Shown here: positions 3,885 through 61,871 of the stretch, in pieces | Numbering within the stretch: position 1 is the stretch's first letter | How the letters are laid out: each line of letters opens with the position of its first letter | Origin: Trichechus inunguis | Lineage: Eukaryota | Reading direction: 5' to 3' | Length of the DNA: 64,000 nt | Assembly (NCBI GenBank): GCA_046562895.1 | Contig: CM102164.1 | Span: 32,523,842 to 32,587,841 of the forward strand | Notes under the pieces: generated by a model | Told to the model about the DNA's origin: nothing | Database searches by the model: none | Seen by the model: only the letters and a program-made list of their open reading frames with translations | Program-made: the position numbers and the translations under genes

Positions 3885-4262
3885 GCTGTTGTTGTTAAGG
3901 TACTGTCGAGTCAGTTCCAACTCATACAGACCCGCCCGGTGTACCTGGTCCTGTGCCATCCTCACAGTGGTTGCTATTTGAGCCCACTACTGCAGATACT
4001 GTGATCAGACCATGTTCCACGGCTACTCATAAGGTTTTCACTGGCCAGTTTTTTAAGAAATAGATCACCAGGTCCTTCTTCCCAGTCTTAGTCTGGAAGC
4101 TCCACTGAAATCTGTCCACCATGGGCGACCCTGCTGGTATTTGAAATACTGGTGGCATAGCTTCCAGCATCACAGTAACACACAAAGCCACCACAGTATG
4201 ACTAACTGACAGATGAGTAGTGGTCAATAACTGCAATGCCACGAAAACCTCAGTTTTAGGTG
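3885..4262 (-). mobile_element. Afrotherian SINE variant with an AfroSINE-type 3' tail and a non-canonical head
   Basis: The plus strand starts gttgttaaggtactgtcgagtcagttccaactcatacagaccc, the antisense of the shared AfroSINE 3' tail ...gagtcggaatcgactcgacagcacctaacaac. The body differs from the canonical tRNA head. Confidence 0.5.
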
Positions 4263-11774: not shown

Positions 11775-11992
11775 TTTAAAGCACTCTATGAAGTCTCCAG
11801 GTGGTGCAAACGGTTTGCACTTGACCACTAACCTAAATGTTGGAGGTGCAAACCCACCCAGCAGCACCACAGAACAAAGACCTGGTGATCTGCTTCTGTA
11901 AAGATTACAGACAAGAAAACTCTATGGACCAGTTCTACTCTGTAACACATGGGGGTCGCCATGAGTCAGAATCAACTTGACAGCAACAGGGT
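11775..11992 (+). mobile_element. AfroSINE inserted in the L1 #1 tail
   Basis: Sense tRNA-like head gtctccaggtggtgcaaacggtttgcacttgaccactaacc and tail …gggggtcgccatgagtcagaatcaacttgacagcaacagggtggtt. Confidence 0.8.
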
Positions 11993-24374: not shown

Positions 24375-27300
24375 AGTGGGGCAAGGCCAAGATGGCGGAG
24401 TAGTCAGCCACTTCCTGTGGTCCCTCTTACAACAAAGACCCAAAAAAAACAAGTGAATTGATTGACAATCTAGGAGCCCTGAACATCAAAGGCAAAGTTG
24501 AGGAATCAGACTGAGTGGCGGGAGGAGGGAGACATGGCTTGGAAGCAGCAAGGAGTTGCCAAACCTGACCCGGTGGGAGCCGAAGCCCTTAAGGCCAGAT
24601 CAGCTGGTGTGCGCAGTGAGGCAAGCAGTGGCGCTCGGGAGGCATTTTCCACATCGGGAGAAACCCAGCGGCAGAGAGTCTACTTGGCCATCCAGAACTA
24701 GTGAAAAGCAGCACTTAAGTGCCTAAAGATAAGTATTTGCATCTGGTCTCCCACGCGGACCAAAAAATAACCCATTTGGGAAAAACGTCTCTCCCGTTCA
24801 TCTTCCCCCTTCCCGCTATGCACTGGGTCCTGGGCCAGCTTCAGCGACTGCCAAGTCCTGTGGGCCAGAAGTAGGACCCATCACATGCCCTGAGCCATTC
24901 TACCAGCCGTGGAGAGGGAACAAATTAACAAACGGGAAAAAATAAGCTGCCAACTCCTCTAAGACAGGAACTCAGGGTTGCACAGCTCCTTTGCCTAGGG
25001 ACAAGAATAAGGGGTCCACGGACTACGAATGCTTTTCATCCCTGCATAGACATGTGTGGGCCCATTTCAAAAGCGTAGGCCCTCAACACCACAGTACAAC
25101 AGGGTATATACATGAAGTCTAACTTCAACTGTTTCAGCTGTGAAGTGGCAGGTTTGTAACATTTGACAGCGCTCTGCCCATTAAACAGGTTCCTCACCTG
25201 CCCACATCAGGGGCCTGAGGACTGGTGGCTGCACCCACACCACCTAGCCACCCATGACAGGGGTCCAAGGATAAGCAGTACCACCTAGTCATCACAGCCA
25301 CCAGCAACAGGTGCTCATAGTCCGGCTGCAAAACCCACCTACCTATGTGCTCTAGGCAACAGGGACACAGTTTCCTCCCAGACACTCAGGGGCAGCCGTC
25401 AGCCCCCTGCCTTGCTCAGTGTGTGACCCCCTACTGAAGCATGATACCTGTGCCTACACCAATTATCCATGCCTGTCTAGGACTGTAGTTGAGAGCCTGC
25501 ACCACACTTAATGACCAACTACCTGGACAACCGAGCTGAATCCATACCAGAAAAGTTAACAGACTCCTGGATGATATACTTAGTAACAGATCTAACTACC
25601 TGGTGAGAAGACATTAGAGCTTCAAAGGCGCCAACAATCAAACTAGCTTAAAAGAGCAGCCTATCTGGGCATATCAAAACAAAACATAGTAAGAAGCTAG
25701 GACACAATAAGCAAACATAAAATAAATTATAATAATTTATTGATGGCTCAGAGACAACAGTCAATATGAAATCACATAAAGAGGTAGACCATGATGGCTT
25801 CAGAAAGCTCCCAAAACAAAGAATCAATAAATTTTCTAAAGGTAGAGAATTTGTTGGAATTAGGGAGGCAGAATACAAATGATTAATATACAGAACTCTT
25901 CAAGAGCTCAGGAAGCAGATCTGGCAAAATGCAGAACAAGCCAAAGAACACACAGACAAAGCAAAAGAGGAACTTAAGAAAGTTATTCAAGAGCATAATG
26001 ACAAATTTAACAGGCTGCAAAAATCCACAGAGAGGGCAATCACAAATTCAGAAGATTAACAATACAATTTCAAAATTAGACAAAACAACAGAAAGTCATA
26101 GGAACAGAATTGAGGCAGCAGAAGTCAGAATTAGTGAATATGAAGATAAAGCCCTTGACACCAACTTATTTGAGGAAAAATTAGATAAAAAATGAAGAAA
26201 CTCTTAGAATTATGTGAGACTCTATCAAGAGAAATAACCTAAGAGTGATTGGACTACCAGAACAGGTGGGGATAATAGAAAATAGAGAGAAAATTGTTGA
26301 AGGTTTGTTGACAGAAAACTTCCCTGATATCATGAAAGATGAGAAGATACTTACCCAAGATACTCATCGAACCCCACATAAGGTCGATCACAAAAGTAAG
26401 TCACCAAGACATATTATAATCAAACTTGCCAAAACCAAAGATGAGAGAGAATTTTAAGAGCGGCTAGGGATAAATGAAAAGTCAGCTACAAAGGAGAGTC
26501 AGTAAAACTAAGCTCGGACTACTCGGCACAAACCACGCAGGCAAGAAGGCAATGGAATGGCATATACAAAGCCTTTAAGGAAAAAAACCGACAGTCAAGA
26601 ATTACATATCCAGCAAAACTGTCTCTCAAATATGATGGCAAACTTAGGGCATTTTCACATAAACAGAAGTTTAGGGCATTTGCAAAAACCAAAAAAGTTA
26701 CAAGAAATAGTAAAGGGAGTCCTCTAGATAGAAAACCAATAATACCAGATAACAACCCAAGACTAGAACACAAGACAGAGCAACCAGATATCAACCCAGA
26801 TAGGGAAGGCACAAAACTAAATCAAAGCTAAAACACTGAAAATAGGGAAATAGAGAGGTCAATATGTAAAAGATGACAACATTAAAACAAAAAAGAGGGA
26901 CTAAAAAAAATGCCGACACAGATTTTTCAAATGGAGAGGAAGTCAAGGTAACATAAAGAAATAAAAGACTTGTTTAAACTTAAAAAAAATAGGGAAATAT
27001 TCAGATAACCACAAAGGAAACTAACAATCCTACACATCAAAATAAAAAACAAGGAAAATATACAGACTCAGCAAATACAAAATCAACAATAATGAAAACG
27101 ATGAAAAGAAAAAACAAACAGAAACGAATCAGCACAGAAAATTAAATGGAACAAAGAAACTGTCAACAACACACAAAAAAAGACATCAAAATGAGAGCAC
27201 TAAACTCATACTTATCAATAACTACACTGAATGTAAATGGACTTAAATACACCAATAAAGAGAAAGAGAGTGGCAGAATGGATTAAAAAAACATGATCCC

Positions 27301-28482
27301 TCTATATGCTGCCTACAAGAGACACACCTTAGACTTAAAGACACAAACAAACTAAAACACAAAGGATGGAAAAAAAATATATCAAGCAAAAACTGCTCAA
27401 AAAAAGCAGAAGTGGCAATATTAATCTCTGACAAAATGGACTTTAAAGGAAAATCCACCACAAAGGATAAGGAAGGACACTATATAATGATTAAAGGATC
27501 AGTACACCAGGTGGAAATAACTATCGTAAATATTTACGCACCCGAAAGGGATCCAAAATACGTAAAATAAACTCTAAAAGCATTGGAAAGAGAGATAGAC
27601 AGCTCAACAATAATACTAGGAGACTTCAACACTCCACTTTCGGTGAAGGACAGAACATCCAGAAAGAAGCTCAATAAAGAAACGGAAGATCTAGAGGTTA
27701 CACTCAACCTACTTGATCTCATGGACATATAACGAACACTCCATCCGACAGCAGCCAAGTGTACTTTCTCCAGAATAGACCATATACTAGGCCATAAAGC
27801 TATAAAAGTAGAAATCAGTAACAGAAAAAGCAAGGAAAAAAAATCAAATACATGGAAACTGAACAACACCTTGCTCAAAAACTACTGGGTTATACAATAA
27901 ACTAAGGATGGAATAAAGAAATTCATAGAATCAAACGAGATTGAAAACACATCCTACCAGAGCCTTTGGGACACAGCAAAAGCAGTGCTCGGAGGTCACA
28001 TTATAGCAATAAATGCAAATCCGAAAAGAAGAAAGGGCCACAATCAAAACATTAACCCTACAACTCGAACAAGCAGAAAGACAGCAGCAAAAGAAGCCCT
28101 CAGGCACCAGAAGAAAGGAAATTATAAGAATCAGAGCAGGATTAAATGAAACAGAGAACACAAAAACAAAAAGAGTTAAAAGACCAAAAGCTGATTCTTT
28201 GAAAACATCGTCAAAATCAATAAACCACTGGCCAAACTGACAAAACAAAAACACAAGACGAGCAAATAACCCGTACAAGAAATGAGATGGGTGATATCAT
28301 AACAGACACAACTGAAATGAAAAGAATCAATACTATGAAAAATTGTACTCTAACAAATTTGAAAACCTAGAGAAAATGGACAAATTTCTAGAAACTCACT
28401 ACCTACCTAAACTAACACAATCAGAGATAGAACAACTAAATAAATCTATAACATTGAAAAGGTAACTAAAAAACTCCCAACA
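24375..28482 (+). mobile_element. LINE-1 (L1 #2): 5'UTR, ORF1 remnant and 5' part of ORF2, 3'-truncated where L1 #3 begins
   Basis: Start agtggggcaaggccaagatggcggagtag. ORF1-like 25790-26720 (…MIGLPEQVGIIENREKIVEGLLTENFPDIMKDEKILTQDTHRTPHKVDHKSKSPRHIIIKLAKTKDERE…). The ORF2 start 27190 runs to …KSITLKR.LKNSQQ at 28482. Confidence 0.85.
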
Positions 28483-29852
28483 GAGAGGCAGGGCCAAGAT
28501 GGTGGAGTAGTCAGATGGCTTCCTATATCCCTCTTACAACAAAGACCTGGAAAAACAAGTGAGTTGATTGTATATATCTAGGAGCCTTCAACAAGGCAAA
28601 GTTGAGGAATTGGACTGAATGGCCGGGGGAGAGGGAGATGCTTCGGAAGAAGCGAGAAGTGCCAGACCAGGCTCGGCTGGAGCTGAAGCTCTTCAGCCCC
28701 GACCAGGTCAGAGGTGCACAGTAAAGCAGGCATACATCTCCACGCGCATGTTCGGGAGGCAGTTTCCACATCGAGAGAGATCTGGCAACAGAGATTCTGC
28801 TTGGACACTACGAACCAGTGAAAAGAAGCTCCCAAGTGGCTAAAGATAAGTACATGCATGTGGCCTTTTGCGGGGATTTAAAAAAAAAAAAGAAAAAAAA
28901 GCCCATTTGGGAAAAACCTCTCTCCCTTTTACCTCCTGCCTCCTTGCTCTGCACTGATCCGGCCTTCCAAAGTCTCTGAGCCCCCTGGGCCAGAAGTAGA
29001 TCCCAAAAGGCGCTCTGACCCATTCTCCTGGTCTTGGAGAGGAACAAATAAGCTACTGGGCCCCCTATGCCAGGAACTAAGGGTCAGCACAGCTCCTTTG
29101 CTAGGCACAGGCATAAGGGGTCCACGGACTTTCAGTGCCTTCCACCACTGAATAGACTTGTGTGGACCCATCTCAACAGCTTAAGCCCTCACTGCCACAG
29201 TACAACAGGGTAAACACCTGAAGTCTAACGTCAACTGTTTCAGCTGTGAAGTGGCAGATTTGTGACCCTTGACACAGCCCTGACCTTTAAGCAGGCACCT
29301 TTACCAGTCCGCACCAGGGGCTCAAGGACTGGTGGCTCCACCTACGCCACCTAGTCACCTGCTACAGGGGTCCAAGAATAAGTGCTTCCCTCGAGTCTTT
29401 ACAGCCAACAGAGTAGGGTGCTCATAATCCGACTGAAAAACTCACCTACCTACTCGCTCTAGGGAATAGGGACACGCTTTCCTTTCAGACACTTGGGGCA
29501 GCCATCAGCCACCTGCCTAACTCAGTGTGTGACCCCCTACTGCAGCCAGATACCTGAGCCTACACCAATCACCCATGCCTATCTAAGACTGTAGGTGAGA
29601 GCCTGCACCACACATTGGTGACCGACTGCCTGGACACCTGAGCTGAACCCATACAGGAAAATTTAACAGAGTCCTGTGTGCACATACTTACTTACAGAAC
29701 TAACTACCTGGTGACAGGACGTTAGAGCTTCAAAGGCGCCAATAATCAACCTAGCTCAAAAGCGCAGCCTATTTGGGCACATCAAAACAAAACAAAACAA
29801 GAACACCAGGACACATTAAACAAAAATAAAATAAAATTATAATACCTTATCG

Positions 29853-46330: not shown

Positions 46331-46679
46331 CACCTCTAAGAAGGGGGCCTGGGAGCCAAGGTCTGGGGAAGAAAGGAAATTCAGTTTTTACTATACTCCC
46401 CTCATGGTCATGCTTCACAGGTTAATGCACACGATGGTAAAAAAATCATCATAAAAAAGTATGCAGGAGGTGGAGTCAACACGGTACCCTAGACAGATGC
46501 ACCATGCTGCCCTCTACAGCAAAGATACAAAAAAAAAAACTAAGTAAAACACATACAAATGTCAGTCCTGGAAACTTGAGCATCAAACAAAGAGATAAAG
46601 AACTAGATCAACTACCTTATGGAAGAAGAAACTGACAGAAAACAGAGAACAAGGAGCCCCCACCCGCTGGCTCCCGCTG

Positions 46680-47230
46680 CACCACCATTTTTTTCTTTCT
46701 TTTCTTTCTCCCTCCCACCAAGCCCCATTTCCCGCTGGCCACGGGGTCTGACCCAACCCACCTGCCAGCCTCCACCACGCCATTATTTTTCTCTTCTTTT
46801 TCTTTCCCCTCCCATCTACCACCTACACCACCTACCCTCCTTCCCATTGGCCCCCACAGTGCTGCTGTGAATACAGTGCCACCAGAGCACTGGCCCACTG
46901 CTGTCCTGGGTCTACCCCACCAACCCATGCCAGCCCCCAATGTGCCATTATTTTTTTTCTTTTTTCTTTTTCTTTTCTTTCCTTTCCATCTTTTCTTTCT
47001 CCCTCCCACCTAGCACCCTAAGCCACCTCCCTCACTTCCCACCAGTCCCTGGGACCACACCGCCCTCACACACCAGCTCCTGCCATGTTGTCCTTTTTTC
47101 TTTCTTTCTCCTTTTTTTCTTTCTCCCTCCCACCTAGAGCCATATCCCACATTCCCCTATTCCCACCAGACCCCGGTGCTCAGCCCACCCCCACATCGGC
47201 TTTACACTGCCCCTCCTCTCCCACCACTTG
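46680..47230 (+). repeat. Four tandem pyrimidine-rich monomers of about 140 bp in the L1 #5 5'UTR
   Basis: Four copies of …cattattttt(c/t)tttctttctccctcccacc…ccagcc…cacc… at about 46690, 46783, 46947 and 47086. The 130-aa and 83-aa ORFs here are low-complexity artefacts. Confidence 0.75.
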
Positions 47231-50200
47231 ACTAGCTGCTGAACATTGGGAAGCGAGCCCATACACTCCCTGTCTGACAACCCTACCCATCTGGCGAGGG
47301 GCTGTGAACACTCCCACACAGCTGGAAAAACATCAGGAGGCAGACAGCACCTGCTCAGTCCACCCTCAGCCACCTTTCCAAACCAGAGTAGAGTGAAGCA
47401 GGTTCGCCTGATCTCCTGCTGCCCTGCCCAACCAGATAAGGTGGTAAAATCTAACATGCCCACAGACAAGCAAGCAGCAAAGCACACCCAGTCCACCTGC
47501 CAGGACATATCAGAACAAAACAAAAAAGCAGAACCAAAGAAAAAAACATACAATCAATAAATAAAGAAAATCATATGTTAATGTCTCACAGAAACCTGGC
47601 AATATCAGGACATAAAAAAGCAGGGCAACATGGCACCAGCAAGTAACCAAAATAAAGAATAAGATGACCATTCAGTAGAAGAAAAGGCAGACAAAGCACC
47701 TGATATGGATTTCAAAAGACTAACGTTTAGGGCTCTCCAAGAGATTACAGTAGAGTTTAAGGAAAACACAGACAAAACCAAGGGAAAAATAGACAAAACC
47801 ATGCAAAATACAGACAAAACCAATGAAAACACAGAAAAGCAATAGAAGACTTCAGGAAAATAATACAAGAACAAAACATTAAAATGAATAAACAATTAGA
47901 AATCATACAAAAACAGCAACTAGAAATCCAAAAGGTAAACAACAAAATTTCAGAAATGGACAACATAATAGAAAGTTTTAGGAGCAAATTTGAAACAACG
48001 GAAGGCAAATCAGCAAGACTGAAGACAAATCTATGGATGCCACTTTGTTGGAGGAAAAATCAGGGAAAACAGTGAAGAAAACCGAAAAATTATGTGGGAC
48101 ACAATCAAGAGGAAATAATTACGTGTGATCAGAGTTCCAGAACATGAGTAGAAAATGGAAAACACAGAGAAGACTGTGTAGGCAGAAAACATCGCAAATA
48201 TGAAGGATGAAAAGCTGACCATCCAAGATGCTCAACGAACCCCACAGAGGACAGACCCCAAAAGAAAGTCACCAAGATATATCATAATCACACCTGCCAA
48301 AACCAAAGACAAAGAAGAAATACTGAGAGTGGCTCGAGAAAAATAAAAAGGCACTTACAAAGGGGAAAGCAATAAAACTAAGCTCTGATTACTTGACAGA
48401 AACTATAAGCAAGAAGGCAATGCTATGACATATATAAAACCTTGAAAGACAACAACTACCAACCAAGAATAATATATCCTGCAAAGCTCTCTCAAATATG
48501 ATGGTAAAATTAGGACATTTCCAGATAAACAAAAATAAAAGGAATTCATAAAAACCAAACCAAACTGACAAGAAATATTAAAGTGAGTCCTTTGGTTAGA
48601 GAACCAACAACATCAGGCAACAATCAGAGTCTAGGACACAGGACAGCATGAGCCAGATACCAATCTACATAAAGAACTGTCAATACTAAAACAAAGCTAA
48701 AAGACAAGGTAACAGAGACGTCAATCTGTAAATGACAACAACAAAACAATAAAAGAGGGAATAAAAAGTGTACATGTAGAACTTTCAAACAGACAGGAAG
48801 TCAAGGTAATATTAAGTAATAAAAAACTCATTCAAACTTAGGAAGACAAGGGTGAATTTCAAGGTAATCACAAAGAAAGCAAATCGGTTCATCAAAATAA
48901 AAACATCAAGACTCAGTAAATAAAAAATCTATAGTAACGAAAAAAATGAAAAGAAAATTCACAAACAAAAGGAACTCAGCACAGGAAAGTAAGAGGAACA
49001 AGGAAAACGTCAGCATCACAAAAAAAAAGCACAATATGACAGCAATAAACTCATAACTATTGATAATCACACTGAATGTAAATGATTTAAATGCACCCAT
49101 AAAGAAACCAAGAGTGGCAGAACTGATTAAAAAAAACACAAACCATCAATATGCTGTCTACCAGAGACACACCTCAGACACAAAGACATAAATATATTAA
49201 AAATCAAAGGATGAAGAAAAACATCAAGCAAACGGGAACCAAAAAAGAGCAGTAGTGACAATACTAATCTCAGATAAAATAAGACTTTAAAGACAAAATC
49301 CACCACAAAAGACAAGAAAGGACATTATATGATTAAAGGGACAATCCAACAAGAAAGCATAACCTTAATAAATATCTATGCACCCAACGACAAGACTCCA
49401 AAGTACATAAAACAAACGTAACAGCACTGGAAAGAGAAATAAGATAGTTCCACAATAACAGTAGGAGAATTCAACACACCACTCTTGGTACAGGACAGAG
49501 TATCTAGAAAGAAACTCAACAAAGACATAGAAGATCTAAAGGTCAAAATCAACCAACTCAACCTCATAGACATATACAGAATACTCCACTCAACAGCAGC
49601 AAAGAATACATTCTTTTCTAAAGCACATAGAACATTCTCCAGAATAGACCACACTTTAGGCCACAAATCAACCCCCAATAAAATCCAAAACATCAGAATA
49701 ATACCAAGCATCTTCTCTGATCAAAACACCATAAAAGCAGAAATTAATAACAGGAAGAGCAAGGATAAAAAATCAAATACATGGAAACTGATTAACACCT
49801 TCCTTAAAAACAACTAAGTAATAGAAGAAATCAAAGAGGAAACAGAAAAAAAATTCCTAGAATCAAATGAGAATGAAAACACATCGTACCAAAACCTTTG
49901 GGATACAGCAAAGGCAGCACTCAGAGGTCAATTTATAGCAATAAATGCATACATCAAAAAAGAAAAATGGGCCAAAATCAAAACACTAGCCCTACAACTC
50001 AAATAGAAAGAGAAAAGCAAGAGGCTCATAGGCAAAGATTAGAGAGAAATTAATGAACTAGAGAGCAGAATAACGATAGAAAGCTCAAACAAGACCAAAA
50101 GTTGGGTTCTTTGAAAAGATCAACAAAGTTGACAAACACTGGCCAAACAGACAAAAGAAAAATAGGAGAGGAAGCATATAACTCAATTAAGAAATGAGAT

Positions 50201-52739
50201 GGGAGACATTACAACAGACCCAACTGAGATAAAAAGGATCACAACAGAGTACAAAATTGTACTTCAAATTTAAGAACCTAGTGGAAATGGACACATTTCT
50301 AAAAACATACTACCTACCTAAACTAACACAAACTGAGATAAAAAATCTAAACAGACCAATAACAAGAGAAGAGATATAAGAGGTAATAAACTAAAAAAAA
50401 AAACTGCCAACAAAAAAAGTCCTGCTCCAGACAGCTTCACTGGAGAATTCTACCAAACATCAAAGAAGAGCTCATACCAGTAATACTCAAACTCAGAGCA
50501 TGGAAGAAGAAGGAATACTCCCGAATTCATTCTATAATGCCAGCATAACCCTGATACCAAAACCAGGCAAAGACACTACAAAAAAAGAAAATCACAGACC
50601 AATATCTCTCATGAATACTGATGCAAAAATTCTCAATAAAATTCCAGCCAATAAAATCCAGCATCACATCAAAAAAATAATACATCACAACCAAATGGGA
50701 TTCATACCAGATATGCAAGGATGCTTCAACATTAGAAATTTAATCAACATAATCCACCACATAAATAGAACAAAAGAAGAGAAACACCTGATCATCTCAA
50801 TCGACTAGAAAGGGAATTTGATAAAATCTAACACCCCTTCCTGATAAAAACTCTCAATAAAACAGGAATAGAAGGGAAATTCCTCAACAAGATAAAAGGT
50901 ACCTATACGAAACCAACAGACAAAATTATTTTCAACGGAGACAGGCTGAAAGCATTCCCCTTGAGAACAGGAATAAGACAACAATGCCCTTTATCATCAC
51001 TCCTATTTAACATTGTGCTGGAAGTCCTAGCAAGAGCAATAATGAAAAAAGAAATAAAAGGCATCTAAATTGGAAAGGAAAAAGTGAAACTATCCCTATT
51101 CACAGATGATATCCTACACACACAGAACCCAAAAGACTACACTAAAAAACTACTGGAAGTAACAGAAAGATTCAGCAGAGTAGTAAGATACAAGCTCAAC
51201 ATACAGAAATCAGTTGGATTCCTATACACCAACAAACAGAACTTTGAAAAGGAAATCAGGAAAACAATACCATTTATAATAGCCCCTAAAAAGATAAAAT
51301 ACTTAGAAGTAAAACTAACCAGGGACGGAAAAGACCTATGCAAAGAATACTACAAAACACTAATGCAAAAAACCAAAAGAGACCTACACTAAATGGAAGA
51401 ACATACCATGCTCACAGATAGGAAGACTCAACATTGCAAAAATGTCAGTTCTACCCAAAGCAATCTACAGATATAATGCAATCCCAATCTAAATACCAAC
51501 AGCATTTTTACAAAGATGGAAAAACTAATCAACAACTTTATATGGAAAGGAAAGAGGTCCCAGATAAGCACAGCATTATTGAAAAAAAAAAAAAAGAAAC
51601 AAATTAGGAGGCCTCACACTACCTCATCTCAGAACCTACTATACATCCACAGTAATCAAACCAGCCTGGTACTGGTACAAGGACAGACACATAGACACAA
51701 GGAACCAGAAGCAAGAAACCAGACGTAAATCCATCCACCGATGGTCAGCTAATCTTTGACAAAGGACTAGTCTATTAAATGGGAAAAGACAGTATTTTTA
51801 ACAAATGGTGCTGGCAAAACTGGATGTTCATCTGCAAAAAAATGAAACAGGACCCATACCTAACGCCTTACACAAAAACTCAAAATGGATCAAAGACCTA
51901 AATATAAAACCTAAACTTACAAAGATCATGGAAGAAAAACAACGCTAGGGGCCCTAATTCATGGCGTAAATACAATACAAACGATAACTAACAATGCACA
52001 AACACCAGAAAAGAAACTAGATAACTGGGAGCTCCTAAAAATTAAACAATTATGTTCATCAAAAGACTTCACCAAATGAGTAAAAAGCAAACCTACAGAC
52101 TGGGAGAAAATTTTTGGATACAACATATCCAACATGGGTCTAATCTCTAAAATCTATAAAATATTTCAATATCTCAACAACAAAAAGACAAATAATCCAA
52201 CTAAAAAACGGGCAAAGGACATGAACAGATACTTCACCAAACAAGACATACAAGCAGCTAACAGACACGAGGAAATGCTTGTGATCATTAGCCATCACAG
52301 AAATGCAAATCAAAACTCAATGAGAGGACTCCGGCAAGATGGCGGTCTAGGCAGAAGCACCACGCCGTCCCTCCACAACAAAGATCCGAAAAACTAAGCC
52401 AAACAGAGAATCAACAATCCTGAAACCCTAGAACATCAAATGAAGAGATAAAGAACTCAGCCGAACACCAAACGGAGTAAGAATACTGAAAGAGAACAGA
52501 GAGCGAGGAGAGATTCATGCAGAGGTCCCCTACCAGCTAACGCAGCGCGGATCCACCATCTTGGACTCCTATCGGAGACCAGCAAACAGGGGTACGAGAG
52601 AGCAGCCTCACAGAGCATCCAGAGGGACACAAAACAGCCGGTAATTTGCGGTGTGCGCTTTCCCACCCCCCACTCCTCTTCGCCCCGGCTGGGGCTCCCC
52701 TGCTTCCTGTGTCCAAGGTCTCTTGGCTGGGGGGCGCCG

Positions 52740-53125
52740 GGTGGTTGGATTCCGTGCGCCCGGGCGGGCGGCTCTCTGGGGACCGTTTGTTGGCTGCTGG
52801 TGTTGCCTTTTCTGCTTCTTTTGGTTTCTCGCTTGCCTCTCGCTGCCTCCCCCTCCGTTTGCTCAGGTGCCTGGCTCCGAGCGCCGTCTTTGCCCTCTCC
52901 TCTGGGGCTGTGGGGACTGCGTTCGGGTGTGCGGCTCCTTCCGGGTCTGGTCTGCTGCGCGGGCGAGGGACTGGGGCCTTTGTTCGTTTGCTCCTCTGCT
53001 TCCCGGGGCCGCGGGCTCTGGGCTCAGAGCTGCAGGCCGCTTGGATTCCGCGCGCCGGGGCGGGCGGCTCCTTGGGTGCCGTTTGTGGGCTGCAGGTGTT
53101 GCTTTTTTTTTTTTCCCCTTTTTTC
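52740..53125 (+). repeat. Tandem duplication of a CpG-rich monomer of about 300 bp in the L1 #6 5'UTR promoter
   Basis: ggtggttggattccgtgcgcccgggcgggcggctctctggggaccgtttgttggctgctggtgttgccttttctgcttcttttgg (52740-52825) versus ccgcttggattccgcgcgccggggcgggcggctccttgggtgccgtttgtgggctgcaggtgttgctttttttttt (53037-53115). The period is about 297 bp and many CpGs are retained. Confidence 0.8.
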
Positions 53126-53854
53126 TTTTTCTGCTTCTTTTGGCCTCATCTCTCTGTCTCTTCCTTTTCTTTCTGATTCCTGAATACCAGGCATTGTATG
53201 CCTCTGCGCCTTCTGAGCAGGCTGTGCTGTGAAACCTGGGACCGACTTCCCCAGACCTCATAGCTGCATCGGTGGGATCCCTGAGAACTTTGCAGTTCTT
53301 TAACTTTTCTGATTTTTATTTGTTCATTCTTTTCTTTCTCATCCCCCTTCTGTTTTTCTCCGTTCCATAGTCTCTCATCTGTCCATTCCAACGGAAAGCT
53401 CCCCTAGCATTCTTTTATGTTTGTATGTTGTTTTGCTGCTGCTCCTCTCTCCTCTCTCCCATATCCAGCTTAGCTTCACACATAACCATCTCCCCGCTGC
53501 ACACTGCCTACCTGCACCATGAACTTGACATCACACCAACAGGCTGTGCAGGCACAGCCTATTGGAACTTGCCCAGCACTGACTACCGACCGTCCTGGTG
53601 GCTTCGGTGAGGACAACAAACAACCCGTCCCAGTGGCTCCTCTTCAGCTAGACCTGCCCAGCTGTACCACACGTGAGTGACTGAACTGGCCAGTTGGAGA
53701 AGGAGGCGAAAAGTATTGAGTCCACAGACGAGTGAACAACAAGGGCCACACAGTCGGCCTGCTCAGACATACTCAAATTTTTCTTTTCTTAAAAAGGGAC
53801 GACACAAAAAAAAAAAAAAAACCACAATCAATAAACAAGAGAAATATCTACTGA

Positions 53855-54904
53855 ATGCCCCGAAAACAGCAAACAATATCAAAACTTTTACGAAAACAAG
53901 ACAGGATGGCTCCAATAGGCGTCCAAACTAAAACACCAGATAACTCTCCTGTGGAAGAAAATACACTAGAAGTACCTGATAGGGAACTCAAATCACTAAT
54001 ACTAGGAATTTTCCAAGAACTGAGGCAAAAAGCTGACAAACATGAGGAAAAAATAGACAAATTAATGGAAAATACAGACAAAAAATTGGAAGAATTCAGG
54101 AAGATGATGCAGGAACAAAATGCCAAAATAAATTCACAACTAGAAATTATACAAAAACAACAATTAGAAATCCAAAAGTTAAACAATAAGATTTCAGAAA
54201 TGGATGATGTCATAGAAGGGCTGAGAAGTAGCTTTGAAACCGTGGAAGACAGGATCAGTGGAACTGAAGACAAACACTTGGATACAACTCTGTTTCAGGA
54301 AAACTCAGAAAAAAGAACAAAGAAAAACGAAGAGACCCTGAGAGTTATGTGGGACATAATTAAAAGCAAAAATTTACGAGTGATTGGCATCCCAGAACAG
54401 GGGGAGAAAACAGAAAACACAGAGAGGATCATTGAGGAACTGCTGACAGAAAACTTTCCCAATATCATGAAAGATGAAAAGCTGGCCATCCAAGAAGCTC
54501 AACGAACCCCATATAGAAGAGACCCCAAAAGAAAATCACCAAGACATATCATATTCACACTCACCAAAATTAAAGACAAACAAAGAATCCTGCGAGCAGC
54601 TCGTGAAAAACAAGAAGTCACATACAGAGGAGAAACAATAAGACTAAGCTCAGATTATTCGGCAGAAACCATGCAGGCAAGAAGGCAGTGGGATGACATA
54701 TATAAAATCTTGAAAGAAAAAAATTGTCAGCCAAGAATAATATATCCTGCAAAACTCTCGTTCAGATTTGATGGTGAAATTAGGTCATTTCCAGATAAAC
54801 AGAAACTAAGGGAATATGCAAAAGTCAAACCAAACTTACAAGAATTATTAAAGGGAGTTCTTCGATCTGAGGACAAACAGCTTCAGCCCTCAGGCAGGAC
54901 CTAG
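53855..54904 (+). CDS. L1 #6 ORF1, intact, 349 aa (L1 ORF1p: coiled coil, RRM and C-terminal domain)
   Basis: Continuous ORF MPRKQQTISKLLRKQDRMAPIGVQ…LEIIQKQQLEIQKLNNKISEMDDVIEGLRSSFETVEDRISGTEDK…NLRVIGIPEQGEKTENTERIIEELLTENFPNIMKDEKLAIQEAQRTPYRRDPKRKSPRHIIFTLTKIKDKQRILRAAREKQEVTYRGETIRLSSDYSAETMQARRQWDDIYKILKEKNCQPRIIYPAKLSFRFDGEIRSFPDKQKLREYAKVKPNLQELLKGVLRSEDKQLQPSGRT. Confidence 0.92.
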   Translation: MPRKQQTISKLLRKQDRMAPIGVQTKTPDNSPVEENTLEVPDRELKSLILGIFQELRQKADKHEEKIDKLMENTDKKLEEFRKMMQEQNAKINSQLEIIQKQQLEIQKLNNKISEMDDVIEGLRSSFETVEDRISGTEDKHLDTTLFQENSEKRTKKNEETLRVMWDIIKSKNLRVIGIPEQGEKTENTERIIEELLTENFPNIMKDEKLAIQEAQRTPYRRDPKRKSPRHIIFTLTKIKDKQRILRAAREKQEVTYRGETIRLSSDYSAETMQARRQWDDIYKILKEKNCQPRIIYPAKLSFRFDGEIRSFPDKQKLREYAKVKPNLQELLKGVLRSEDKQLQPSGRT

Positions 54905-55332
54905 GAAACAGGATCATACGAACCAGATACCATTCTAGGAAATGAACTCTCAAGGAAGGACTATCCAAAACCAAAAGAAATACAACAGGGAATCAGAAGA
55001 GTCAATCAATGGATGACAACAACATCAAGACAATGAAAGAGGGAATAAACGGCATAGGTATAGAACCTTCTAATGGAGAGGAAGGCAGGGCTATACCAAG
55101 TAAGGGTAGACTGCTTCAAACCTATAAAGATAAGGGTAAAATTCATGGTAACCACAAAGAAAGTTAACAAACCAACTCATAAAAATAAAGATGAAAATCA
55201 TAAAGTCTCAGCAAAAACAAAACCTACAAAAACAAAAGAAATGATCACAAAATCCACAAACAAGAGTAACTCAGCACAAGAGAGTAAGAAGAACAAAGAA
55301 AACTTCAGCACCACAAAAAAAAGCACTACAAA

Positions 55333-58300
55333 ATGACAGCAACAAACTTACATCTATCAATAATTACACTGAATGTAAATGGACTCAATGCACCCATAAA
55401 GAGACGGAGAGTGGCAGAATGGATAAGAAAACAGGATCCATCAATATGCTGTCTACAAGAAACACACCTTAGAAACAAAGATGTGAATTTATTAAAAATC
55501 AAAGGATGGAAAAAAATATATCAAGCTAACAATGACCAAAAAAGAGCAGGAGTGGCAATTCTAATCTCAGATAAAATAGACTTCAAAACAAAATCTACCA
55601 TAAAAGACAAAGAAGGTCACTATATAATGATTAAGGGGACGATACATCATGAAGACATAACCATAATAAACATCTACGCACCCAATGACAGGGCTCCAAA
55701 ATACAGAAAACAAACTCTAACAGCACTGAAAAGAGAAATTGACAGTTCCACAATAATAGTAGGAGACTTCAACACACCACTCTCAGTAAAGGACAGAACA
55801 ACTAAGAAGAAACTCAGCAAAGATACAGAAGACCTAAAGGGCACAATCAGCCAACTGGACCTCATAGACATATATAGAACAATCCATCCAACCGCTGCAA
55901 AGTACACATTCTTTTCCAATGCACATGGAACGTTCTCCAGAATAGACCACATCTTAGGCCACAGAGCAATCCTCAACAAGATCCAAAACACTGAGATAAT
56001 TCACAGTATCTTCTCTGACCACAATGCCATCAAGGTAGAAATTAACACTAGAAAGAGCAAGGAAAAAAAATCAACTACATGGAAACTGAATAATACCCTG
56101 CTTGCACATCAATGGGTAATAGAAGAAATCAGAGATGGAATCAAAAAATTCCTAGAATCAAACGAGAATGAAAACACATCATACCAAAACCTTTGGGACA
56201 CAGCAAAGGCAGTCCTCAGAGGACAATTTATAGCAATAGATGCACATATCAAAAAAGAAGAAAGGGACAAAATCAAAACATTAACTAAAGAACTCAAACA
56301 AATAGAAAGAGAACAGCAAAAAAAGCCTACAACCACCAGAAGAAAGGAAATAGTAAAGATCAGAGCAGCAATAAATGAAATAGAGAACAGAAAAACAATA
56401 GAAAGAATCAACAAAACTAAAAGTTGGTTCTTTGAAAGAATCAACAAAATCGACAAACCACTGGCCAGACTGACAAAAGAAAAACAGGAGAGGACACAAA
56501 TAACCCAAATAAGAAATGAAATGGGAGACATTACAACGGACCCAACAGAAATAAAAAGGATTATAACAGAATATTATGAAAAACTATATTCCAACAAATT
56601 TGAAAACCTAGAGGAAATGGATAAATTTCTAGAAACACACAGCCTACCCAAACTACAACAAAGTGATATTGAAAATCTGAACAGACCCATAACAGGAGAA
56701 GAGATTGAAAAGGCAATAAAAAAACTCCCAACCAAAAAAAGCCCTGGCCCAGATGGCTTCACTGGAGAATTCTACAAAACATTCACAGAAGAGCTGGTAC
56801 CAGTTCTACTCAAGCTATTTCAGAGCATAGAAAAGGAAGCAACACTTCCAAATTCATTCTATGAAGCCAGCATAACGCTGATACCAAAACCAGGCAAAGA
56901 CATCACAAAAAAAGAAAATTATAGACCTATATCTCTCATGAATATAGATGCAAAAATTCTGAACAAAATTCCAGCCAATAGAATTCAGTATCACATTAAA
57001 AAAATAATACACCACGACCAAGTAGGATTCATACCAGGTATGCAAGGATGGTTTAACATTAGAAAATCCATCAACGTAATACACCATATAAATAGAAGGA
57101 AAGAAAAAAATCACATGATTATCTCAATTGATGCAGAAAAGGCATTTGACAAAGTCCAACACCCATTCCTGATAAAAGCTCTCAATCAAATAGGTATAGA
57201 AGGGTAATTTCTCAACATAATAAAGGGCATCTATGCAAAACCAACGGCCAACATCATTCTTAATGGAGAGAGGCTGAAAACATTCCCCTTGAAAACAGGA
57301 ACAAGACAAGGATGCCCTTTATCACCACTCCTATTTAACATTGTGCTGGAAGTTCTAGCTAGAGCAATAAGGCAAGAGAAAGAAATAAAGGGCATCCAAA
57401 TTGGTAATGAAGAAGTTAAACTGTCCCTGTTTGCAGATGATATGATACTATACATAGAAAACCCTAAAGACTCCACAAGAAATCTACTGGAACTAATAGA
57501 AAGATTCAGCAGAGTAGCAGGATACAAGATAAACATTCAAAAATCAGTTGGATTCCTATACACCAGTAAGGACAACGATGAAAAGGAAATCAGGAAATCA
57601 ATACCATTTTCAATAGCCCCTAAAAACATAAAATACTTAGGAATAAATCTGACCAGGGATGTAAAAGACCTTTACAAAGAAAATTATAAAACACTACTGC
57701 ATGAAACCCAAAGAGATCTACATAAATGGAAAAACATACCATGCTCATGGATAGGCAGACTCAACATTGTGAAAATGGCAATTCTACCCAAAGCAATTTA
57801 CAAATACAATGCAATACCGGTCCAAATACCAGCAACATTCTTCAAAGAGATGGAAAAACTAATCATTAACTTTATATGGAAAGGGAAGAAGCCCCGAATA
57901 AGTAAAGCACTACTGAAGAAGAAGAATAAAGTTGGAGGACTCTCACTACCTGACTTGAGAACCTACTATACAGCTACAGTAGTCAAAACAGCCTGGTACT
58001 GGTACAACGACAGATACATTGACCAATGGAACAGAATTGAGAACCCAGATGTAAATCCATCCACCTACGGTCACCTGATCTTCGACAAGGGCCCACAGTC
58101 CATCAAATGGGGAAAAGACAGTCTTTTTAACAAATGGTGCTGGCAAAACTGGATATCCATTTGCAGAAAAATGAAACAGGACCCATACCTCACACCATAT
58201 ACAAAAACGACTTCAAAATGGATCAAAGACCTGAATATAAAGCCTAAAACTATAAAGTTCCTAGAAGAAAAAATAGGATCAACACTTCAGGCCTTAATAC

Positions 58301-59049
58301 ATGGCATTAACAGGATACAAACCACAACCATCAACACACAAAACCCAACAGATAAACTAGATAAATGGGATCTTCTAAAAATCAAACACCTATGCTCTTC
58401 AAAAGACTTCACCAAAAGAGTCAAAAGAGAACCTACAGACTGGGAAAAAATTTTTGGACAGTACAAATCAGACAAAGGTCTAATCTCCATAATCTACAAG
58501 AAAATCCAACACCTCTACAACAAAAAGACAAACAATCCTATTAAAAAATGGGCAAAGGAAATGAACAGACACTTCACCAAAGAAGACATTCAAATGGCCA
58601 ACAGACACATGAGGAAATGCTCGCGATCACTAGCCATTAGAGAAATGCAAATTAAAACCACAATGAGATACCATCTCACTCCGGCATTACTGGCACGAAT
58701 CAAAAACACTGGAAATAACAAATGTTGGAGGGGCTGTGGGGAGATGGGAACTCTTATGCACTGCTGGTGGGAATGCAAAATGATACAACCATTTTGGAAA
58801 ATGATATGGCGTTTCCTCAGAAAACTAGAAATAGACATACCATTCGATCCAGCAATCCCACTCCTAGGAATATATCCTAGAGAAATAAGAGTCGTCACTT
58901 GAATAGACATATGCACACCTATGTTCATGGCAGCATTGTTCACGATAGCAAAACGATGGAAACAAACTAGATGCCCATCAACAGATGAATGGATAAACAA
59001 ACTATGGTACATACACAATGGAGTACTATGCAACGAGAAAGAACAATAA
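55333..59049 (+). pseudogene. L1 #6 ORF2 (endonuclease and reverse transcriptase), single frame with two nonsense codons and one C-terminal 2-bp deletion
   Basis: ORFs 55333..57207 and 57289..58902 are in the same frame (both start positions are 1 mod 3). Stop TAA at 57205-57207 (IEG*FLNIIKG, expected AAA). Stop TGA at 58900-58902 ([12 protein letters not shown], expected CGA, a CpG decay). Near 59014, …[14 protein letters not shown] replaces the expected WY.H.MEYYA…, implying a 2-bp deletion. Otherwise carries the EN, RT ([23 protein letters not shown]…[11 protein letters not shown]) and cysteine-rich ([19 protein letters not shown]) motifs. Confidence 0.9.
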
Positions 59050-61871
59050 TGAATCAGTGAACCATCGCATAACATGGATGAAACTGGAGGACATTATGCT
59101 GAGTGAAATAAGTCAATCACAAAAGGACAAATATTGTATGAGACCTCTATTGTAAAAACCAATGAAAAAGTTCACATGCAAAATGTAACAATTCTTGTTG
59201 GTTACCAGGGATGGGAGGGGTGGGGGGGGAATATTAAATAGGCAATAGACAAGTGGTATCTTGGGTGAAGGGTCAGACAGTACTCAATACAGGGGAAACT
59301 AACACAACCTGTACAAGGAAAGGTCATGGAGGCCCCATGGACAGATTCAAACTCCCCGAGGGACTGAGTTGCTGGACGGAGGGCTCTGGGGACCATGGTC
59401 TCGGGGAACATCTAGCTCAATTGGCATGACACTACTTATAAAGATAATGCTCTACATTCTACCTTGGTGAGTAGTGTCTGGGGTCTTAAAAGCCTGTGAG
59501 CGGCCATCTAAGATACTCCACTGGTCTCATCTCTTCGGGAGCAAGTGAGAATGAAGAGAACAGGATACAACGAAAAGATTAGTCCAAAGGACTAATTGTC
59601 CACAGCTACCAAGACCTTCACCGGACTGAGTCCAGTACAGCTAGATGGCTACCCGGCTACCACCGCTGACTGCTCTGACCAGGATCACAACAGAGGGTTC
59701 TGAACAGAGCTGGAGAAGGATGTAGAGCATAATTCTAACTCACAAAAAAAAAAACAAAAGACCAGATTTACTGGCCTAAAGGAGACTGGAGAAACCCCGA
59801 GAGTATGGCCCCCAGACACCCTTTTAGCTCAGTGGTAAAGTTACCTTCGAGGTTCACTGATCAGCCTGCGAGTGGACAGCCCAGTAAAACCATGAGAGTA
59901 ACGAGGTACAGGAGTCCAGTGACAAGGCCCAGAAGGCAGAAGGGGAGTAGGAAGCTGATGATAGGGAACACAAAATAGAGTAAGGATATTGTTGATGTGT
60001 TGTGAGATTGTTAACCATTGTCATAGGGCAACATTTGTAGTAACTGTCAAATGGGAGACTATTTTGTCCTGTAAGCCTGCATCTTAAGTGAGAATAACAG
60101 CATAATTAGAAGAGCGTAGTCAATGTCACTTAAATGTGTATGTAAAAAAAAATTTTTGAAATGGAAAAAAAAAAAAAAAAACTCAATGAGATACCACCTC
60201 ACTCTGACATTAATGTCACTGATCAAAAAAACAGAAATTAACAAATTTTGTAGAGCTTGCTGGGAGACTGGAACTCTTATGCACTGCTGGCAAGCATGTA
60301 AGATGGTATAATCACTTTGGAAAAAGATATTCCACCTCCTTTAAAAGCTAGATGCCCATCAACAGATGAATGGATAAAAAAAGTATCGTAATACACACAA
60401 CGGAATTCTACCCAACAATACAGAACAATGATGAATCTTCAAAACATCTCACAGCAAGGATGAATCTGGAGGGCATTATGCTGAGTGAAGTAAGTCCATC
60501 ACAAAAGGACAAACACTGTATGAGACCACTATCATAAAAACTCAAGAAAAGGTTTACACACAGAAAAAAACAATCTTTGATGGTTATGAGGGAGGTAGAA
60601 GAGGGTTGGGGGGGAGATCACTAACTAGATAGAAGACACGTGTTAACTCTGGTAAACGGAAAGACAACACACAATATAGGGAAAGTCAGCAAAACCTGAC
60701 TAAGGCAAAGTCATAGAAGCTTCCTAGACACATCCAAACACCTTGAAGGACCAAGTTACTGGGGCTAAGGGCTGGGGACAATAGTCTCAGTGGACCTCTA
60801 GGTCAATTGCAATAATATAGCTCATAAAGAAAATTTTCTACATCTTACTTTGGTGAGTATTGTCTGGGGTCTTAAAAGCTTGTGAGCAGCCATGTAAGAT
60901 ACATCTATTGGTCCCATCCCGTCCAGAGTAAAGGAGAATGAAAAAAATCAAAGACACAAGAAAAATATTAGCTCAAAGGACAAAGGGACCACATGAACCA
61001 CAGCCTCCACTAGCCTGAGCCCATGGTGCCTGGCTACCACCACCGACCACTCTGACAGGGATCACAATGTAGGGTCCCAGATAGAGCAGGAGAAAAATGT
61101 AGAACAAAATTCAAATTCACAAAAGAACACTAGACTTACTGGTCTCACAGAGACTGGAGGAACCCCCCAGACACCCTGCTAACTCAGAACTGAAGCCACT
61201 CCCTAAGTCTACCTTTCAGCCAAAAATTAGACAGACTTATAAAACAAACAACAGCACATGTGAGGGAAGTACTTCTTAGTTCAAAAAAGTATACGAAACC
61301 AAAAGGGCAACACCTGCCCAAAAGCAAAGGCGAGAAGGTAGGAAGGGACAGGAAAACTAGACAAATGGACACAGGGAACCTGGGGTGAAAACAGGGAAAG
61401 TGCTGACACATTGCAGGGATTGTAACCAATGTCAAAAAACAATTTGCGTATAAAATTTTTGAATGAGAAACTAAGTTGTGCTGTAAACTTTCACTTAAAG
61501 TGCAATAAAAAAAAAGTGTGCACACACAAAGGTCCACACCACAGTAACACATATAAGTTAGGTACTCCATGGTTATAAAAGAAACTTAAATGTTATCTTG
61601 CTTTATAATAAAGCACTTCATTGTAAAGTCCTGGAAATGCTAAGACACAGGCTTAAGTTTGAAAAACCTGAAGGCATAATTCATCCGACTCTCTTATACT
61701 AGTGATTATGATTTAGATCCAGAAAATCAGTAAAATTTTTAAAAATCCCCAACTAACTTGATTTCTACTGAACAACTAGAAAGCTCAAGATTTCAAACAT
61801 TTTCTTTGACAACATAATGATAAATGTTAAATTTATTATATTTTGATATGTATTTTATAATGCTGACTTAC

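Follow-up and report, generated by a model that had tools for sequence, protein, structure and literature searches.

The stretch analysed here (64,000 nucleotides of contig CM102164.1, hereafter the window, whose own numbering is used throughout) carries on its + strand, at 52326-60181, one continuous full-length copy of a long interspersed nuclear element of the LINE-1 (L1) type. It is 7,856 bp long from a complete 5' untranslated region (5'UTR) to its poly(A) tail. We read this young copy as fixed and no longer active, a full-length member of the 'AfroLINE' lineage of afrotherian LINE-1, a reading to which we give a probability of roughly 0.88. It has the domains of open reading frame 1 (ORF1) and the domain order of ORF2 that mark a LINE-1, and it bears the signs of target-primed reverse transcription in its A17 tail, its perfect 14-bp duplication of the target site and its TC/AAAA target. 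Elements of this kind are already known, and the features of the young copy are ordinary; it fits the picture of afrotherian L1 already described, and full-length L1 copies that are young can be expected in the majority of mammalian genomes. An initial annotation of the window had recognised a full-length L1 of 7.86 kb, and that element stands, though both of the ends proposed for it (52325-60180) were off by one base.

The young copy cannot mobilise itself, because its ORF2 is broken three times. A retrotransposition-competent ('hot') L1 has both reading frames uninterrupted; here ORF1 is intact, and ORF2 contains two in-frame stops and a frameshift. These lesions are derived, the lineage that gave rise to the copy was under purifying selection, and close relatives with an open ORF2 exist in public sequence collections.

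Insertion site and element boundaries

The young copy is flanked by perfect 14-bp target-site duplications (AAAACTCAATGAGA, + strand) at 52312-52325 and 60178-60191, identical to each other as the initial annotation had reported. Its tail, on the + strand at 60165-60181, consists of 17 A without interruption, again as first described. The first four A of the duplication merge with the tail, whose last four may be part of the duplication, so that 10-14 bp are duplicated and 10 bp of these are unambiguous. The insertion target reads TC/AAAA, one base from TT/AAAA, which is the consensus of the classical L1 endonuclease site.

The insertion split an older L1 lying on the same strand, the 5' part of which occupies 46470-52325 and the 3' part 60192 to about 61510 (both +). 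This host L1 is 79.9% identical to the young copy and carries many stops, and its two halves give colinear BLAST matches to the young element's own 53811-58668 and 58661 onwards. Since the halves are colinear, the empty site can be reconstructed from the window alone: rejoining the flanks yields aatcaaaactcaatgagataccacc, in agreement with the empty site that had been predicted. The window's other L1 pieces, described at the outset as visibly older, are 70-80% identical to the young copy, and most of them are riddled with stops and frame breaks.

Two older full-length L1s in the window inform the position of the 5' end. The young copy begins with GGACTCCGGCAAGATGGCGG and has a YY1-like box, CAAGATGGCGG, at 52335-52345 (nucleotides 10-20 of the element); in the human L1 5'UTR, a similar YY1-type box near the start directs accurate initiation. 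The older full-length L1 at 24376 starts at a homologous position, begins with GGGGCAAGGCCAAGATGGCGG and has the same YY1-like box, while the host L1 at 46470, also with a homologous start, shows a CpG-decayed version of the young copy's first bases and box. Since both older elements start at the homologous position, the 5' end of the young copy is complete to within a few bases.

Known L1 biology suggests how the insertion may have come about. RNA from an active source element would have been inserted by target-primed reverse transcription, with the ORF2 endonuclease nicking the bottom strand at TTTT/GA inside the older L1 and the poly(A) tail priming on the T-run. Reverse transcription would have run through to the extreme 5' end, and the target site would have been left duplicated over 14 bp. 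After insertion, the copy would have drifted neutrally by roughly 0.5-0.9%, gaining two nonsense mutations, the 2-bp ORF2 deletion and missense changes; ORF1 and the CpG-rich promoter region would have remained intact while the capacity for self-mobilisation was lost.

Coding regions and the three ORF2 lesions

ORF1 (53855-54904, + strand) runs without interruption for 349 amino acids (aa), as initially annotated, and comprises a coiled coil, an RNA-recognition motif (RRM, aa 173-267) and a C-terminal domain (CTD, aa 270-333). It matches the Pfam families PF02994 and PF17490, and its aa 122-339 align to human ORF1p 2ykp (2ykp/2yko at 6.6e-61). An open ORF1 would say little by itself, as it is a likely outcome at a divergence of about 0.8%.

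ORF2 occupies 55333-59155 on the + strand and comprises 1,274 codons when repaired, with its natural TAA at 59153-59155. An endonuclease domain (55333-56046; Pfam PF03372, 6.7e-22), a reverse transcriptase domain (56881-57651; Pfam PF00078, 9.4e-48) and a Cys-rich motif, CX3CX7HX4C (58723-58776), follow one another on that strand. The motifs QETH, GDFN, SDH and FADD (the last at 57430-57441) are likewise all present. Against human ORF2p 8uw3 the alignment extends from end to end (query aa 1-1270 to chain 1-1268, 1961 bits). ORF2 had been described as a single frame with only three lesions, which holds, and as 3.7 kb long, where the actual length is 3.82 kb.

The first lesion is an in-frame TAA at 57205-57207 (+) that replaces AAA (Lys625); three of the window's older paralogues have AAA at this site, as do two public contigs described below (L003 and L002). 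The second, a CpG transition, turns CGA (Arg1190) into an in-frame TGA at 58900-58902 (+), and CGA is found there in two older window paralogues and in the public contigs L003, L002 and L004. The third is a 2-bp (CA) deletion in an ACACACA run at 59015-59018 (+), where three older paralogues have extra bases at site 59017 (two bases in two of them, one base in the third) and L003 and L002 likewise show the undeleted state. Downstream of about 59017 the frame is shifted by +1 and is then open to the natural stop; the first out-of-frame stop lies about 10 codons downstream of the deletion. Given these ancestral states in older paralogues and public relatives, all three lesions are derived. Both nonsense changes, the second of them as CpG decay, had been called correctly in the initial annotation, as had the deletion itself, which lies 46 codons before the natural stop and not about 12. 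Repairing the three lesions may not restore competence, since missense changes private to the copy would remain, among them L547P within NKILANRIQ, a part of ORF2 conserved across the human, rabbit, dog, horse and L003 sequences.

Selection and age of the insertion

We estimated the decay of the young copy in two independent ways. The first was a nonsense clock: 5.3% of random substitutions in ORF1 and ORF2 (4,869 coding nucleotides) create a stop, and the two stops seen thus correspond to about 38 substitutions, or 0.77% divergence (95% confidence interval 0.09-2.8%). The second was a three-way polarisation of the young copy, L003 and L002 over 2,527 ORF2 columns, which assigned 49 private changes (1.94%) to the young copy, 6 (0.24%) to L003 and 50 (1.98%) to L002.

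The 48 private coding changes of the young copy comprise 25 synonymous and 23 non-synonymous ones (both stops included), against a neutral expectation of 23-26% synonymous (binomial p=5e-5), while the private changes of L002 (17:33) are close to neutral. This synonymous excess indicates that purifying selection acted along most of the branch leading to the young copy, which thus belonged to an L1 lineage that was active. The source lineage was therefore active until shortly before the insertion.

The private changes also bear on whether the young copy is an assembly artefact, a consensus-like product of collapsing or chimerising reads from many near-identical L1 copies. Errors of this type typically arise in young repeats, and L003, with its 6 private changes, is itself suspected of being consensus-like. 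A collapsed consensus would, however, lack the 49 private substitutions, the two private stops and the private 2-bp deletion of the young copy. Both junctions with the host L1 are moreover exact and carry a matching target-site duplication, and we regard an artefact of this kind as scarcely credible.

Along the young branch, synonymous divergence is about 4% and non-synonymous divergence about 1.3%, and private change in the 3' untranslated region (3'UTR) amounts to 5.3% (27/505). If the ratio of non-synonymous to synonymous divergence (dN/dS) in the active lineage was 0.1-0.2, neutral decay since insertion is estimated at about 0.5-0.9%, which agrees with the nonsense clock. At 2.2e-9 substitutions/site/year, the insertion would be about 2-4 million years (Myr) old, with several-fold uncertainty, and we place its age at roughly 2-5 Myr. 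The element is thus young, but it is probably not brand new, and probably not polymorphic. The initial annotation had called the insertion 'very recent' and its lineage 'probably still active'; young on an evolutionary scale the copy is, but neither 'very young' nor 'probably still active' is supported, and with an estimated decay of about 0.5-0.9% the copy differs by 2.25% from its closest public relative.

These estimates also speak to a quite different history, in which the insertion is extremely recent and possibly polymorphic, its lesions having been carried over from a defective source RNA mobilised in trans. The perfect duplication, the 17 pure A, the intact ORF1 and the preserved CpGs of the 5'UTR would all suit such an event, though a 14-bp duplication and a 17-nucleotide tail are usually still perfect at the divergence estimated here and do not discriminate. 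The proteins of an L1 act with strong preference on their own encoding RNA, and mobilisation of an RNA whose ORF2 is truncated would therefore be rare. Neutral decay of about 0.5-0.9% is consistent both with the nonsense count and with the excess of non-synonymous changes, and we consider a trans-mobilised recent insertion very unlikely and favour a fixed copy that acquired its lesions in place.

Public relatives and afrotherian affinity

Exact-protein look-ups placed neither ORF1 nor the 624-aa N-terminal ORF of ORF2 in public assemblies. Scans of genome and metagenome contigs, made with ORF1 peptides and with a 30-mer common to the element and contig L001, gave no match. Nothing above 97.75% identity was found in the searched collections, which hold hardly any afrotherian repeat DNA.

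The best relative of ORF1 (P0001, 89% aa identity) is encoded on L001, a 1,149-bp contaminant contig in the assembly of Pseudomonas sp. MOB-449, a strain from groundwater (PMC9634551). At the nucleotide level, L001 matches the young copy in the 5'UTR and at the beginning of ORF1 with 87% identity. The next-best named ORF1 matches are proteins of Elephas, Loxodonta and Trichechus at 54-56%. With full-length ORF2 as the query, boreoeutherian L1s match mostly at 60-71% and a Loxodonta fragment (P0161) at 77%; the unusual ORF2 C-terminus KDKYC[IM]RPLL is common to the young copy and P0161, and no xenarthran L1 was among the matches listed. The protein identities and the shared C-terminus support a putative afrotherian origin of this L1, consistent with the initial annotation, which had placed the element in an Afrotherian lineage: the best named matches are afrotherian.

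The top matches to the full-length ORF2 query are long sequences at 60-70% identity that mask short close relatives, and a shorter C-terminal query was used to recover the latter. It returned a cluster at 90% (P0253, P0362, P0361 and P0363). P0253 is encoded on L002, a 3.8-kb contig of the Pseudomonas assembly that is 95.0% identical to the young copy over 56347-60148, the whole 3'UTR included, while P0362 and P0361 come from a Bacillus subtilis and an Agrobacterium assembly, respectively. P0363 is a 739-aa uninterrupted C-terminal part of ORF2 on the ENA metagenome contig L003 (ERZ23499736). This contig is the closest public relative, with 97.75% nucleotide identity over 2,529 nucleotides of ORF2 (2.25% difference). 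A check for relatives free of the three lesions had been proposed at the outset; run on the public contigs, it found the ORF2 of L003 (P0363) open across all three sites. Contigs L001-L005 belong to the same L1 family as the young copy and carry none of the three lesions. Measured against them, the young copy sits on a derived branch, its private changes amounting to 1.9% in ORF2 and 5.3% in the 3'UTR.

Several points weigh against a fixed, now inactive afrotherian copy of the age given above. The closest public relative is no more than 97.75% identical, and L001-L005 may come from related species and not from the same one. The division of change into pre- and post-insertion parts rests on the assumed dN/dS of 0.1-0.2, and the age in years assumes a rate of about 2.2e-9, which varies several-fold among afrotherians.

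The same set of relatives bears on whether the copy is instead the relic of a now-extinct lineage, left by one of the last L1 bursts and with no competent sister copies remaining. Four afrotherians have been published as candidates for L1 extinction (PMC5203782), and the young copy does carry three knock-out lesions. Apart from L003, its close relatives (L002 and L004) have frame breaks or cover the 3' end only, and no relative at 99% identity or above was found in the searched collections. That absence means little, since these collections are nearly without afrotherian repeat DNA, and L003 retains an open ORF2 segment of 739 codons. The selection signature, in turn, shows a lineage that was active until shortly before the insertion. 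We therefore regard an extinct-lineage relic as possible but doubtful. The opposite reading, that the subfamily is still retrotransposing in an afrotherian scored as an L1-extinction candidate from an early draft assembly (its genome would then contain intact sister copies, and the published call would be owed to the assembly), seems to us unlikely.

Two side observations concern the sequences that these searches recovered. Afrotherian-type L1 fragments stand as contaminant contigs in three unrelated bacterial assemblies (L001 and L002 in GCA_024054415.1, L004 in GCA_034555075.1 and L005 in GCA_013358225.1), and such L1 contaminants have been annotated as bacterial proteins: MCO6060498.1 ('reverse transcriptase family protein' [Pseudomonas sp. 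MOB-449]), NUL20362.1 ('endonuclease' [Agrobacterium tumefaciens]) and WP_322840249.1 [Bacillus subtilis]. In NUP42 isoform X1 of Loxodonta and Trichechus (P0004 and P0005), the C-terminal half is derived from L1 ORF1. L1-derived coding exons are reportedly the subject of a 2025 paper in Genome Research, and NUP42 appears to be of this kind.

Untranslated regions and spacer

The 5'UTR (52326-53854, + strand, 1,529 bp) is CpG-rich and CpG-island-like in composition, and would be where the internal promoter of a full-length L1 lies. It has 66 CpG at an observed/expected ratio of 0.60, rising to 0.72 in a core at 52641-53130, against 0.22 in the rest of the window and 0.21 in the 5'UTR of the host L1. 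This bears out the initial description of a CpG-rich 5'UTR that has not decayed. Within the first 200 aligned nucleotides, several CpG of the young copy are TG or CA in the host copy. Over the aligned 53811-59820, which takes in the last bases of the 5'UTR, ORF1, the spacer, ORF2 and the greater part of the 3'UTR, the young copy has 54 CpG, and in each older copy about half of these read TG or CA. Dating by CpG decay against the older copies was dropped, as it is confounded by change along the L1 lineage; with CpG half-lives of tens of Myr, CpG retention would in any case be a weak clock.

The core of the 5'UTR is GC-rich, A-poor and CpG-island-like, and contains two direct repeats (52694-52811 and 52990-53107) that lie 296 bp apart and are 78% identical. 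Tandem Repeats Finder detected no monomer array in the 5'UTR, only this two-copy repeat with its 296-bp spacing. A-poor stretches with internal direct repeats occur in the 5'UTRs of both the young copy (52641-53130, G+C-rich) and the host L1 (46657-47200, pyrimidine-rich), which hints weakly at an organisation in monomer-like units of the kind found in mouse L1. The ORFs that cross the GC-rich core (176-193 aa in all three sense frames and 132 aa antisense) were rejected as a compositional effect of the A-poor stretch. An inverted YY1-like core, CCATCTTGG, lies at 52556-52564, about 220 nucleotides into the 5'UTR, inside GGATCCACCATCTTGGACTCC, which loosely mirrors the first 20 nucleotides of the element. 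The older L1 at 24376-28502, whose 5' end looks complete (GGGGCAAGGCCAAGATGGCGG...), has a differently structured 5'UTR of about 1.4 kb.

ORF1 and ORF2 are separated by a spacer of 428 bp (54905-55332, + strand) that is 50% A and has homologous counterparts of similar length in three older copies. It contains an 87-aa lysine-rich ORF (55073-55336), whose TGA overlaps the ATG of ORF2 (ATGA). An ORF as long as this arose in 168 of 5,000 shuffles (3.4%), so we do not regard it as significant. Its own ATG is not conserved in the older copies, whereas the ATGACAGC context is conserved there. In a weaker variant of the proposal that the subfamily still moves, this would be a real coupling ORF for ORF2 translation, a suggestion to which we likewise attach little likelihood.

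The 3'UTR (59156-60164, + strand) is 1,009 bp long and has a layout that older copies share; both the long 3'UTR and the long spacer recur in the older copies of the window. A G-quadruplex-type tract, GGGATGGGAGGGGTGGGGGGGG, is found at 59208-59229. The 3'UTR of the young copy agrees with the family sequence as far as the last bases before the tail, and L002 is 93.3% identical to the young copy across it. We considered a 3' transduction for the last 12 nucleotides, TTTTTGAAATGG, or the last 65. At the same place, L002 continues ...GTAGAAATTTT, which matches ...GTAAAAAAAAATTTTTGAAATGG, and the odd last bases therefore belong to the family. An internal A-run at 59744-59754 was examined as an old tail followed by a second element and was also rejected, the older copies and L002 being colinear across it. 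Rfam and tRNA scans of the element gave no matches.

Comparison with other L1 systems

The young copy follows the same plan as human L1 (L1Hs/L1PA; ORF1p 2ykp, ORF2p 8uw3/8sxt). Both have a YY1-type box near nucleotides 10-20, an ORF1p composed of coiled coil, RRM and CTD, and an ORF2p with an APE-type endonuclease, a reverse transcriptase and a Cys-rich tail. They also share a G-rich tract in the 3'UTR, an A tail, a target-site duplication and a TT/AAAA-type target. In its degree of decay the young copy resembles human copies of L1PA2 age, unlike a polymorphic insertion. The two differ in their non-coding parts: human L1 has a 5'UTR of 0.9 kb, an ORF1-ORF2 spacer of 63 bp and a 3'UTR of 0.2 kb, whereas the young copy has a 5'UTR of 1.5 kb (unrelated beyond the first few tens of nucleotides), a spacer of 428 bp and a 3'UTR of 1.0 kb. 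Its ORF2p also ends about 20 residues earlier (...KDKYCMRPLL).

Among afrotherians, Waters et al. (2007, PMC1764860) described AfroLINEs that are lineage-specific and show signs of recent activity in aardvark, golden mole and elephant. For the Asian elephant, a preprint (PMC12424770) put the number of potentially active L1s at 4,143. The full-length 338-aa elephant ORF1 (P0003) is 56% identical to that of the young copy, and ORF2 fragments that are presumably elephant-derived are 71-77% identical. This low identity points to a separate afrotherian L1 lineage and to a host that is probably no elephant. Spacers of several hundred bp are also known from perissodactyl and megabat L1 families (280-500 bp between ORF1 and ORF2 in those of horse and rhinoceros; PMC5872511), where the host clade differs, the comparison being one of length.

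With three obvious repairs and known ancestral states, the young copy offers a good template for the active consensus of an afrotherian subfamily, and in studies of recent afrotherian phylogeny or of populations the insertion could serve as a presence/absence marker. Should the host be among the species proposed to have lost L1 activity, the copy would place the latest activity there no more than a few million years back. Whether its subfamily still moves in the host is a point of some value.

Other features of the window

No convincing exon-like ORF was found outside the repeats of the window. A tRNA-derived short interspersed element at 11790-11990, which looks like an AfroSINE and as such would suit an afrotherian host, ends ...GGGGTCGCCATGAGTCAGAATCAACTTGACAGCAAC and adjoins the 3' end of an older L1 (5.6-11.8 kb).

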